Positions 3,001 to 6,000 of a stretch of 24,873 nt of DNA are shown piece by piece (within the stretch, counting starts at the first letter, position 1; every line of letters starts with the position of its first letter). The DNA is taken from IMG/VR virus record IMGVR_UViG_2609459852_000004; one strand, written 5' to 3'. The DNA comes from a virus. Taxonomy: Duplodnaviria > Heunggongvirae > Uroviricota > Caudoviricetes. Made by a program: the position numbers.

Positions 3001-6000
3001 AGAGTGGCGGTGTTATCTGCGTGACCTGGTTCATCGATAGTACCCAGGTTAAGCACACTGACTGCTCGCATATTATCGGCATCGATAAAGCAGCGGGTGC
3101 CTTCATCTGCAAGATCTTTAGAATAACGGGTAAAGTCATCTATGCTGGCAGTGGAAAGTGCACCACGGAAACGGAAGCGATTTAAATTAAATTTTTCCAG
3201 ATCATGAATGCGGAAATTCTCAGGCAATGCCACAGCATCGGCACCAATCTTACTGATAATTTCATTAACACCCTGAGCAGAAATAAGGGCATGGATTTGA
3301 TTAATTGCGGTTGCGTCTAAGTTCTGAGACATAATAAGTCCTCACTATATAAAGATATTCAGTGATGAGATAAATAATCAGTTTATTAAGAACGATATTA
3401 ACGACCTGCTGCGCGGAGTTTTCCGTCAGGCTCACCGGCAAGAGTCAGTAATTGTCCTTGGTCTTCCTGCAGAATAGTCAGGCGACCACCGCGATTGACA
3501 TACATCGGCGTTTCGGTGGTGTCTTCTTCGGAAATTTTCCCGCGGTTAGTCGGGCGAACATATGAGAGTTTGTGTTTGATTTTCACACGGTTCTCATCAA
3601 ACGGTTCGATTTCCAGGTTGAGTGAGACCTTACCTTTGGTTTTCGTGTTCATCACACCGGAAGCGACTTCACTGAGAACTGCGCCGATTTTGGTTTCAAA
3701 TACGCCGCCGTCCAGCTCCCCGATAAATGCCTGCACATCAGTACTGCGTTCGCTAGCCATTTTGCTGCTCCTCATCATATCGACCCTGCAAAGTCGGTTG
3801 GTTTCTCCACAAAACAGAGAAGAACACCTGCGGTGGCAGCCGCCCGGGTGGATTGGGTTATGAGCCCGTCGTCCGGTGATGCTCTTCTCTGTTTTGTAAA
3901 AAGAGCGGTACCAGCCGGAAGCAAGTGTACAAACTGGTACCGCCAAAGCAGTGGCTGTTGTGGTGGGGGTGTCACTCAGGCGTATGGTCAACCTGACAAT
4001 CCGGTGTCCTCAACGGGGAAAGAGTAACCCCGCCATACTTACCGCCGCGCCATTTCGCGGATTACCACAACGCTGAGAGCACTTAGCCAGTTACGGCACC
4101 ACACTTTGTCGCGGCTCCATAAATGCCCTCATCGTTGCACCCTGGTCTCTTCCCAGGCGTCAAACCGAATCGCCACGCTGGTTAGGCGTCTTATCAGCAT
4201 CATCATTGACTTGCACATTCCGGCTACCTGGTTTGTTTGCCCGAGCAAGGAGTGGATTGTCCCCTTTAACGTCCCCAGACCGCTAACGACGCATGTGCCA
4301 TACGCCGTGTTACAACCAAATTTTGTTAGTACCTTGTTTGTAGGTCTGGAAAGAAAGATAAAATGAAGTTGCGCATTATGCAAGTGTTTTTATTGCGAGA
4401 TATGCAATTTGATGGGTAATGAAAAGCCACCTTCTGGTGGCTAATTGATGTTGAGGTAGGGGGTTAATTGTGTCGCTTAAGGGTTTGTGACTGACTGATT
4501 AAGACCTTTCCAAAGACCATAAACCGGTGTTCGTTTTCGCTGGTAATTCCCCATTCGCGGTAAATCTGATTATCAGAAATTACCAGCAGTTTATCAGGTA
4601 TCATTTGCAGTCGTTTGACGTAAATTTTATCATCAAAACCAAATACATATATACCATCCCCATCAAACTGATTGATACTGATATCAACGAAGATGAGATC
4701 TCCTGGCTCAATGGTTGGACACATACTGTCCCCACGAACGTTGATAACTTTAATGTGATTTGCTGGTCGTCCACCAAACATCGATACAGCATTATCAGTT
4801 CTGTATTCAATGGCATGAATCACATCAATGACATCACCGCCCTGGATAAGGCCATTTCCCGCACTGGCACTGACATCCAGCATTTCAATACGGAATACAT
4901 CCTTCACCTGCGCAACATCCTCACTAATACTGTTTTTACATACAGTATTACTTTTGAGGTCTGAGGTAAAGAGATCAGCAATATCAACACCTAAGCTCCT
5001 GGCAATATTACTCAGGGCTTGTTCAGTGAATTGTTTCTGCTTACCTGTTTCGAGGCGCGAGATATTCGCCGCATCCACTCCTATTGCTTCAGCGAGATCG
5101 GCGATTTTCATGTTCTTCGCCTGGCGAAGTTGTCTGACTCGATTTCCTATGTTCATGCGTTTATTACATTTCTTTATTGCGCGTTAAGCAAATCAACTTG
5201 CGCAAAATATTTGCGTGAAATAATATGCTCATCACGCAATATGTGGAGGTTATATGCAATCACCATTACGGAATGTGCGTAAGGCGCACGGATTTACTTT
5301 GCAGCATGTTGCTGCGGGCGTTCAGGTCAATCCAGCGACGCTGAGTCGTATTGAAAGACTGGAACAAATTCCATCTATCGATCTTGCAGAACGTCTGGCC
5401 AATTTTTTTAAGGGTGAAATCAGCGAAATGCAGATTCTTTATCCGGCACGTTTTCAATCTAGCCAAAACCAGAATGGGTTTAAACCACAGGAACAGGAGG
5501 TAAGCCGTGGGTAAGCATCACTGGAAAGTGGAAAAACAACCTGAGTGGCACGTGAAAGCTGTCAGAAAAACTATCGCGGCATTGCCTGGGGGTTACGCTG
5601 AAGCTGCTGAGTGGCTGGATGTAACAGAGAACGCTTTATTCAACCGCCTTCGTGCAGATGGCGATCAGATTTTCCCGCTGGGATGGGCAATGATTTTACA
5701 GCGCGCGGCTGGCACTCACTACATTGCGGATGCTGTCGCACAGTCTGCTGGTGGGGTGTTTGTATCGCTTCCTGAAATTGAGGAAGTAGAGAACGCCGAT
5801 ATAAACCAGCGCCTGCTGGAAGTCATCGAACAGATCGGGAGTTACTCAAAGCAGATTCGTTCGGCAATCGAAGATGGGGTAGTGGAGCCACACGAGCAGA
5901 CAGCAATTAATGATGAGTTGTATCTGTCAATTTCGAAGCTCCAGGAGCATGCAGCACTGGTCTACAAAATCTTTTGCGCTCCAGAAAAGAGTGACGCCCG

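Follow-up and report, generated by a model that had tools for sequence, protein, structure and literature searches.

An untranslated leader ahead of the early-left genes of a lambdoid Escherichia coli prophage, homologous to the dicF region of Qin and probably organised like a tRNA unit

Results

A structured interval follows the repressor gene

In this study, a 24,873-nt window of a lambdoid E. coli prophage (IMG/VR record IMGVR_UViG_2609459852_000004) was analysed, with the emphasis on the interval 3761-4463 between the cI-like repressor gene and the first early-left gene. All coordinates refer to this window, and early-left features are read on its minus strand. The interval is homologous to the dicF region of the Qin prophage, and in our reading it probably forms the untranslated start of the pL operon, laid out in the manner of a tRNA or stable-RNA unit. 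This reading is supported by the observed homology, the folds and their covariation, the anatomy of the terminator, the absence of a conserved open reading frame (ORF) and the relation to a slot used by tRNA genes. On the minus strand, the modules follow each other in the order cI terminator, operators and pL, a structured leader (B), a pseudoknotted domain (C), a 10-nt linker, a terminator hairpin (D), a long hairpin (E), a small hairpin and the Shine-Dalgarno (SD) sequence of the first gene.

A preliminary description of this DNA had called the ~700-bp gap after cI ORF-poor and highly structured, and this was borne out: the interval contains no credible gene, its main helices covary, and the predicted fold of the 589-nt leader reaches -226.9 kcal/mol, compared with -198.9 ± 7.3 kcal/mol for dinucleotide shuffles (n = 100; z = -3.83; 0/100 shuffles as good). 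The folding and covariance comparison across homologues that it had proposed revealed conserved covarying helices in B, C and E. An identical (100%) copy of the interval is carried by strain AST240, copies of 98-99% identity by phages PhiR47_1, cdtI, 2H10 and many Stx2c-converting phages, and at least 80% of the interval is present in 999 of 5426 complete E. coli genomes. BLAST breaks the interval into blocks of differing distribution.

Domain C is a covarying pseudoknotted RNA located directly upstream of DicF in Qin

Domain C (3955..4073, minus strand) was delimited by covariation and by R1, a covariance model of C built in the present analysis, which finds a single copy in the 24.9-kb window (130.7 bits) and none in mEp460, SfII, ST64B or the tRNA-Arg locus L003. 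It is a 119-nt four-way junction comprising helices P1 (4071-4064/3964-3957) and P2 (4060-4056/4049-4045), then P3, the variable hairpin P4 and P5, and a pseudoknot in which GUAUGG (4038-4033) pairs with CCAUAC (3987-3982). When P1-P5 and the pseudoknot were tested together, 94.6% of the cells were paired, compared with at most 54% with the partners slid, both-side changes occurred in 17 of 39 pairs, and 0/500 shuffles reached any measure, in an alignment whose fitting to the R1 model flatters the pairing figures. Independent cases of compensation are also visible in the raw sequences, including P5 of Izhakiella (GGGUAACCA/UGGUUACCC vs GGAUUGUCA/UGACACCCC in the window), a U-A to C-G change in the pseudoknot of phage P1 and another in helix P1 of the Qin copy. 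The P4 hairpin occurs in many sequences and lengths, with a pyrimidine-rich loop. Pairing of this loop with the purine-rich D loop or with GGAGAAAC was considered and rejected, as by inspection it is inconsistent across homologues.

The sequence 4071-3949 of the window is 89-92% identical to the 107-123 nt lying just 5′ of DicF in Qin and O157. The 3′-half pattern of C is found at more than 120 IMG/VR loci, and a looser pattern gave 18 matches among species-representative genomes, one of which is apparently a chance match (Billgrantia) and three of which are mis-binned contigs of metagenome-assembled genomes with Escherichia/P1 sequence; the remaining matches all belong to Enterobacterales (Escherichia, Shigella, Citrobacter, Trabulsiella, Serratia symbiotica, Erwinia tracheiphila and Izhakiella).

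Phages P1 and P7 carry C ~35 nt downstream of their C1-controlled Pban promoters, followed by an intrinsic terminator and, later, by tRNA genes, and the P1 record NC_005856 annotates a 'dicF-like region' where C lies. The Pban leader resembles the window in that C has the same pseudoknot and helices, with compensatory changes, behind a repressor-controlled promoter, and in that tRNA genes and a copy of leader B stand in the same operon. On the other side, phage P1 has a closing stem of other sequence (AGCUGU/ACGAGCU) and one small hairpin more, terminates with a simple GCCCAUC/GGUGGGC hairpin that is not DicF-like, and has its B copy after trnI, downstream of C.

In Qin (locus L002, ~4150-4190, minus strand), a partial duplicate of the 5′ part of C (ACGCGAAAGCGCACGGCGAGGUAG) lies ~60 nt upstream of C, where it is the 5′ arm of stem U (see below), and the IMG/VR variants L018 and L062 have apparently recombined through it. 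The Actinobacillus phage vB_Apl-pPE4 (locus L008, 1784-3164) contains an E. coli-type DicA, a C 84.5% identical to that of the window, a DicF-like terminator and a kil region, which is odd for the recorded host, Actinobacillus pleuropneumoniae.

Hairpin D is a DicF-family terminator

Placed by alignment with Qin, the linker GCCACUGCUUU (3945..3954, minus strand) joins C to hairpin D (3898..3944, minus strand). D is an intrinsic terminator in which GGCGGUACCAG (3944-3934) pairs with CUGGUACCGCU (3914-3904), followed by C and U5 (3902-3898), with a T5 run and a predicted free energy of about -19 kcal/mol. The automatic terminator scan skipped it, because its loop is longer than the 8-nt limit of the tool. 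The alignment with Qin runs on into DicF itself: UUUGGCGGUAcCAGUUU is kept, followed by a compensated 3′ arm and then CUUUUU. D shares UUUGGCGGUAyCAGUUU with DicF, and the 3′ half of the stem is compensated. D was assigned to the DicF family as a GGCGG.../...CCGCC hairpin with a U-tract, located in a lambdoid early-left operon directly after a conserved upstream domain, collinear with Qin and O157. The linker occupies the place of the DicF 5′ seed of Qin, the window lacking 19 nt (UAUCAAUUUUCUGGUGACG), and linkers differ among alleles.

A GC-rich hairpin with a T-run lies within ~25-130 nt 3′ of C in 132 of 133 C copies. The stems of these terminators make up a graded DicF series (GGCGGUAUCAG, GGCGGCAUCAG, GGCGGUACCAG, GGCGGGUAUCC and GGCGGAA, among others), and in every one the 3′ arm matches.

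The dicF locus of Qin (dicBF operon, RF00039) resembles the window in its early-left place in a lambdoid operon under an immunity repressor, in the ~90% identical C-type sequence 5′ of DicF, in the GGCGG...CCGCC terminator hairpin, and in a long RNase III-type stem after the U-tract that ends just ahead of the SD of the next gene. It differs in the seed and loop of DicF, in the uncompensated stem, in the genes ydfABC, which stand between promoter and C where the window has leader B, and in the downstream gene, dicB in Qin and yfdP-like in the window.

Processing has been studied in Qin. A 190-nt DicF species has an RNase III-dependent 5′ end, and a 53-nt form is produced by RNase E (PMC10448788), and a 72-nt DicF has a 3′ end made by RNase III (PMC5069750). 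Hfq binding and processing by RNase E as well as RNase III are reported for Qin DicF only (PMC5069750, PMC10448788). On our own coordinates, the 190-nt species would begin inside the 3′ arm of stem U, 3-5 nt ahead of P1 of C. In wild-type Qin, a 1,146-nt transcript ending at dicF was detected, and a 1,608-nt read-through transcript only under RNase E inactivation (PMC10448788), which implies that a D-type hairpin ends an RNA and attenuates the expression of downstream genes.

Hairpin E probably contains an RNase III site

Hairpin E (3804..3902, minus strand) has an 18-bp stem (3897-3880/3826-3809) and a branched apex including GGGCUCAUAACCC. If the U-tract pairs with GGAGA, the stem extends to 25 bp, which is also the consensus of the outer stem (18 Watson-Crick or G-U pairs plus the U-tract:GGAGA pairs). 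The 'long hairpin' of the preliminary description is thus present at 3902-3804, with arms of 18 bp, or 25 bp in the extended form, rather than 16. RNAalifold predicted 37 pairs in E, four of them with compensatory changes. Erwinia and L039 have 25 nt more in the apex, and Serratia has it inverted: in Serratia symbiotica (L136) the 18-bp stem is kept, and its ~70-nt interior reads as the E. coli sequence in reverse complement, an inversion between the inverted repeats.

E resembles in position and form a 20-21-bp stem of Qin (GUGAAUUUUGUGAUGUGGUG/CACUGCAUCACAAAAUUCAU), which starts 3-5 nt past the DicF U-tract and ends just before the dicB SD. By our count (19 nt past the 53-nt end), the 3′ end of the 72-nt DicF falls in the middle of this stem. 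RNase III processing hairpins are near-perfect duplexes of ~20 bp or more beside a stable RNA; with 18 bp, or 25 bp if wobble pairs are counted, next to a putatively stable RNA, E is a probable RNase III site. The lambda N leader likewise contains an RNase III site, in a hairpin that separates the leader of an early promoter from the first gene, the difference being that it works together with N and nutL, which were not found in the window. Between E and the ribosome-binding site lies the small hairpin CGAC-UUUGCAGG-GUCG (3781..3796, minus strand), and homologues keep a hairpin of other sequence there (GCCCC/GGGGC in SfII, ACGCC/GGCGU in F1055, GCGGC/GCCGC in Erwinia).

Leader B and the tRNA slot

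Leader B (4072..4321, minus strand, ~250 nt) was defined by homology and covariation. Its landmarks are a hairpin GGCGUAUGGCACAUGCGUC (from ~4306), the invariant GGUAGCCGGAAUGUGCAAG and the hairpin CCUGG-GAAGAGA-CCAGG (4157-4141); long invariant stretches, including GGUAGCCGGAAUGUGCAAG and the GAAGAGA loop, stand alongside variable hairpins. Helices CCUCG/CGAGG, CCUGG/CCAGG and GCCGG/CCGGC covary, and RNAalifold reported six pairs with double changes. The closing helix, stem U (4132-4119 with 4084-4072), covaries across more than 20 variants and abuts domain C.

B occurs in three settings, namely in lambdoid phages after the repressor gene (the window, mEp460, mEp390), ahead of tRNA-Arg in Uetakevirus phages, and between trnI and ban in P1. 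The segment 4308-4065 is ~83% identical to the sequence directly 5′ of the phage tRNA-Arg(UCU) gene in L003 and in phiV10. This homology extends through AGUGCUCUCAGCGUU and ends at GUGG. In the tRNA-Arg unit these four bases open the tRNA, and in the window they belong to the 5′ strand of helix P1 of C, so that tRNA-Arg starts where P1 starts. In Uetakevirus phages, B and stem U lead to tRNA-Arg, after which come a small hairpin and linker, then a terminator of the DicF type (UUGGCGGUGAUGG...CUAUCACCGCCCUUUUU) and a hairpin resembling E. The tRNA-Arg(UCU) units of phiV10, SPN9TCW and a Klebsiella ST512 phage therefore share with the window B, stem U, the junction AGUGCUCUCAGCGUUGUGG, the terminator and the E-like hairpin, and differ in having a normal 74-77-nt tRNA in the slot and no immunity-controlled promoter.

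Among the 121 B copies with enough downstream sequence, the slot after B is occupied by tRNA-Arg in 27, by C in 25, by a 135-nt insert, C2, in 17 (e.g., mEp460, Tyrion), and otherwise by rarer inserts. Nearly all slot contents are framed by GUUGUGG...CCACAAC. One insert (L226, 1077-1203, minus strand) matches the tRNA model with 43.9 bits, has a 64-nt insertion in the anticodon arm and an acceptor stem UGUGGUU/AACCACA, and may be an intermediate between tRNA and C-type cassettes; ARAGORN made no call on it or on the other odd cassettes. C gives no cloverleaf call, yet it sits in the tRNA slot and has an acceptor-like stem, GUUGUGG/CCACAAC, in common with this insert. Judged by the framing of the slot and the acceptor stem of L226, P1 seems to be what is left of the acceptor stem of a tRNA, and C seems to derive from a tRNA.

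C2 (L001, mEp460, ~3620-3760; L154, Tyrion; 17 IMG/VR loci) replaces C between identical GUUGUGGUG/CACCACAAC strands. It resembles C in layout, running from a closing stem over AAU and a hairpin of 5 bp to a central domain and a terminal hairpin, and it has no sequence similarity to C and no Rfam match. In phage P1 (L007, ~4770-5056), the B copy starts right after the CCA end of trnI; after it, just 5′ of the ribosome-binding site of ban, comes AUUUUCUGGUGAUGAC, a match to the 5′ seed of DicF.

RNase E starts tRNA 3′ maturation in E. coli. It also makes the 5′ end of DicF, which fits DicF being a 3′ trailer. In sRNAs (small RNAs) of the 3′ETS-leuZ type (ETS, external transcribed spacer), RNase E likewise frees a terminator-bearing trailer 3′ of a tRNA-like unit; unlike there, the upstream unit in the window is not a tRNA. 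We put forward, as a possibility that we hold somewhat short of even, that temperate enterobacterial phages (lambdoid, P1-like and epsilon15-like) share a widespread and so far uncatalogued modular RNA unit, exemplified by this leader and consisting of leader B, an exchangeable acceptor-framed slot for tRNA-Arg or tRNA-derived pseudoknotted mimics (C, C2 and others) and a DicF-type trailer and terminator, that DicF began as a 3′ external transcribed spacer, and that B and C are two new RNA families. Candidate partners of B and C would then be tRNA-processing or -modifying enzymes, tRNA-targeting defence nucleases, and RNA polymerase.

Discussion

A proposed course of transcription and processing

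On loss of the repressor, pL (start near 4347) would transcribe the ~250 nt of leader B, whose last helix, stem U, abuts the seemingly tRNA-derived C in the slot that tRNA-Arg uses in related phages. A short trailer would follow C, and then D as intrinsic terminator; stopping at D would yield an RNA of ~450 nt. Trimming at stem U could leave a stable C + D RNA of ~175-185 nt, the counterpart of the 190-nt DicF species of Qin, and further cleavage in the trailer could free the D hairpin as an sRNA. Polymerases that read through D would transcribe E, and RNase III would cut its 18-25-bp stem, separating the RNA cassette from the mRNA of the YfdP-like and later early-left genes. D would thus have two roles, forming the 3′ end of an sRNA and attenuating the expression of the early-left genes. 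RNase III and RNase E, possibly together with RNase P, would carry out the processing, and the products might act in trans. Given that the DicF seed is lost and the loop is different, the targets of the window allele are probably other than ftsZ, xylR and pykA, the targets of K-12 DicF.

Several observations weigh against this account. The Rfam DicF model does not match D, either at its gathering score of 48 bits or at E <= 10 (2-kb and 321-nt slices of the window), and it gave 76.7 bits for Qin (L002) and a sub-threshold 27.7 bits for a relative in L215. The DicF 5′ seed UUUCUGGUGACG, which pairs with the xylR and pykA mRNAs (PMC5069750), is absent, having been removed by the 19-nt deletion relative to Qin. 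The complementarity of D to the ftsZ start region was no better than that of shuffled sequences (RNAduplex, -32.0 kcal/mol for the window RNA against a shuffle mean of -32.8), in a low-power test that is weak even for true DicF (-38.5 vs -34.4 kcal/mol). We infer, moreover, the pL start, the efficiency of termination at D and every cleavage, and B and C may act in cis outside this account. Finally, a terminator ahead of all early-left genes in viable phages (mEp460, cdtI and Stx2c phages) invites a read-through mechanism, and none was found.

A protein-independent antiterminator

This last point is what would be solved if B and/or C were a cis-acting, protein-independent processive antiterminator that carries RNA polymerase through D and later terminators, in place of N. 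The preliminary description had already suggested either a structured regulatory RNA or an antiterminator resembling put of phage HK022. HK022 put suppresses termination in cis via the zinc-binding domain of the RNA polymerase beta′ subunit. It is a protein-independent nascent RNA of ~70 nt in an N-less lambdoid phage, with two stem-loops and one copy behind each early promoter (PMC9378689). Consistent with such a role, no N-like protein was found among the leftward ORFs tested, in keeping with the preliminary description (the first of them match unknown families and the YfdP-like, DUF2303 and phosphatase families); in the window, in Qin and in the P1 Pban leader, B and C come after the promoter and before the first terminator; the long invariant single-stranded stretches and the pseudoknot suggest a conserved macromolecular partner; and a strong terminator is kept ahead of all early-left genes in viable phages.

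The likeness to putL and putR is confined to a structured RNA near the start of an early operon, in a lambdoid phage that lacks N. With its 119 nt, C forms a four-way junction with a pseudoknot; it is present once and not behind pR, exchangeable between phages, and neither its sequence nor its architecture is like put; the HK022 nun-cI-cro region, which carries putL and putR, gave a best blastn E-value of 0.82 against the leader, and the cI genes alone match. C is swapped for C2, other inserts or a tRNA in leaders with the same D, E and downstream genes, which is hard to square with binding to an invariant polymerase. B also stands ahead of a plain tRNA unit, and after trnI in P1. In addition, read-through in Qin was seen only when RNase E was mutated, which gives no visible sign that termination at DicF is suppressed. 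Thus, of the two earlier suggestions, a regulatory RNA directly behind the putative pL holds up and the likeness to put in sequence and architecture does not; nothing that we found requires cis antitermination by B or C, and we consider it unlikely.

The motifs on which the antitermination idea had been built all lie on the minus strand as described (CGCTCTTTTTACAA at 3907-3894; the stem CGGTACCAG...CTGGTACCG at 3944-3934/3914-3904; CCGCG...CGCGG at 4060-4056/4049-4045). The first of them, taken for a boxA, turned out to be the end of the stem and the U-tract of terminator D, whose stem is the very CGGTACCAG/CTGGTACCG repeat listed beside it, and a boxA + boxB nut site was rejected on this ground. 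A second boxA-like string, UGCUCUC (4080-4074), was likewise set aside, as it is the 3′ arm of stem U, whose covariation explains it as a helix strand.

Inert remnants or a riboswitch

Alternatively, the modules might be inert leftovers of an ancestral phage tRNA operon, kept as a folded untranslated spacer that avoids Rho loading and sets pL apart from the first gene. The scaffold is clearly derived from a tRNA operon, the DicF seed is lost in the window allele, and cassettes are freely exchanged, all of which would suit such remnants. However, Escherichia, Citrobacter, Erwinia, Izhakiella, Serratia, Trabulsiella and P1-type plasmid phages all retain unpaired nucleotides that hardly vary, along with many compensatory changes, indicating selection on specific folds and sequences and not just on any structure. 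This makes mere remnants improbable.

A pseudoknotted domain of aptamer size followed by an intrinsic terminator of variable sequence, as seen in 132/133 copies, is also the classic layout of a riboswitch-like attenuator, in which C would sense a ligand, a tRNA or a protein and gate terminator D. Against this, the spacer between P1 and the terminator measures 8-31 nt and constitutes the functional DicF seed in Qin; the minimum-energy fold of the long form contains both C and D, next to each other, with no mutually exclusive pairing predicted; the same terminator also follows tRNA or unrelated domains; and no Rfam riboswitch matched. A riboswitch is accordingly very improbable.

Coding potential of the interval

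The mechanical ORFs of at least 40 aa in the gap measure 66, 64, 41, 86 and 84 aa, and none has a Pfam match. Only two match PHROG families (3651 and 33599; window 3833-4027, plus strand, and 3775-3975, minus strand), and they lie on opposite strands of the same DNA, a typical product of the automatic annotation of conserved non-coding DNA. The corresponding database 'hypothetical proteins' of up to 190 aa (L005, 2453-3025) are ORFs that cross covarying RNA domains, and these proteins and PHROG families are probably annotation artefacts. Homologues of the interval differ by indels that are not multiples of three, and a conserved protein-coding gene, which the preliminary description had named as the finding that would overturn its proposal, was found neither by Pfam nor by PHROG nor by homologue comparison.

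In several relatives (F1055, L005; ST64B, L010; L136, L145, L147 and L148), a long terminator hairpin bears AGGAG and AUG/GUG (M-F-Y/C-R...) in its loop. Conservation of the mini-frame in those taxa is limited to the first four codons, and the element might act as a mini-ORF, as a seed region or as a decoy for ribosome binding. As the start of a small protein in five taxa it was rejected, neither frame nor length being conserved.

That the interval encodes one or more small proteins, be it the minus-strand ORF 3975-3775, the plus-strand ORF 3833-4027 or a YfdP extended N-terminally from the in-frame TTG at 3991, may seem to be favoured by the two PHROG matches, the annotated hypothetical proteins, the AGGAG and ATG/GTG in the D loop of F1055, Erwinia, Izhakiella, Serratia and Trabulsiella, and the 77 codons over which the first-gene frame stays open upstream, but is scarcely credible in view of the opposite strands of the PHROG matches with zero Pfam matches, SD-led ORFs of 43, 36, 21, 39 and 11 aa in differing frames in the five taxa, the lack of an SD or start codon at the D-loop site of the window, the varying length of C (116 to 124 nt among copies), the 25-nt insert or inverted interior of E, indels of 1, 3 and 4 nt in B, and helix substitutions that are compensatory rather than synonymous. 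As far as the comparative data reach, coding appears to be excluded.

Relation to known RNAs

The Rfam 15 search called for in the preliminary description came back empty for B, C, D and E, in the window (at gathering score and at E <= 10) and in seven related loci; the only matches obtained were to tRNAs, to true DicF in Qin and, in other parts of the window, to isrK and C4. Neither ARAGORN nor the Rfam tRNA model found a tRNA anywhere in the window. DicF, its 190-nt form and the 'dicF-like region' of P1 are already known. The searchable literature on dicF-like elements, P1 ban and prophage sRNAs (Pas, HnrS) contained nothing on B or C, and the fold of C, leader B, the tRNA-slot architecture and DicF as a tRNA-unit trailer were found neither there nor in Rfam 15, with the proviso that older key papers were beyond reach and may hold an earlier description. 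We regard the locus in the window as a seed-less member of the DicF family, with a real chance that B and C are new RNA families.

DicF is among the oldest known bacterial sRNAs, and its 190-nt precursor has so far been treated as a mere processing intermediate. The present comparison shows the extra ~120 nt of this precursor to be a deeply conserved, covarying pseudoknotted domain, common to phage P1 and located in a tRNA slot. C and the slot suggest a concrete evolutionary origin for DicF, as a tRNA-unit trailer, and point to a second stable RNA at the locus. Some 1,000 complete E. coli genomes, including those of Stx2c- and cdt-converting phages, carry the leader unannotated or under spurious 'hypothetical proteins'. 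How N-less lambdoid phages pass a strong terminator before their early-left genes is now testable with the defined elements B, C, D and E.

Flanking genes, promoter region and a neighbouring RNA module

On the repressor side, the interval is bounded by the ORF 4464-5156 (minus strand), which encodes a repressor with helix-turn-helix and Peptidase_S24 domains (Pfam and PHROG matches); Cro-like and CII-like genes lie at 5254-5514 and 5507-6058. This boundary, a gene end at 4464, agrees with the preliminary description. The other does not, since the first leftward ATG is at 3760-3758 rather than at 3761; it opens a YfdP-like gene of 120 aa (phrog_204), preceded by the SD GAGGAG at 3773-3768 (3398..3773 in all, minus strand). 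The terminator scan placed the intrinsic terminator of the cI-like gene, AGCCACC-AGAA-GGTGGCT followed by TTTTC, at 4425..4442 (minus strand), and the annotation of phage SfII likewise marks this element as a terminator.

Read from the sequence, OL/pL would occupy 4355..4407 (minus strand), with a -35 element TTGCAT (4383-4378), a -10 element TATCTT (4360-4355) and a start near 4347. Two candidate operators, TTGCATATCTCGCAA (4407-4393) and TTGCATAATGCGCAA (4383-4369), have the form TTGCR-N5-YGCAA and overlap the putative promoter, and the motif recurs at OR. The region aligns with a TTGACA promoter-like site ahead of leader B in L003, and a consensus promoter scan of the region made no call at this site.

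Outside the leader, at 6415-6603 (plus strand), Rfam matches to isrK (59.3 bits) and C4 antisense RNA (82.3 bits) stand back to back, inside a mechanical 387-aa Ant/Rha-like ORF (6055-7218). The isrK match ends in an intrinsic terminator at 6469-6486. This region is a c4-ant secondary immunity module of the P1/P7 type, located in the rightward operon.

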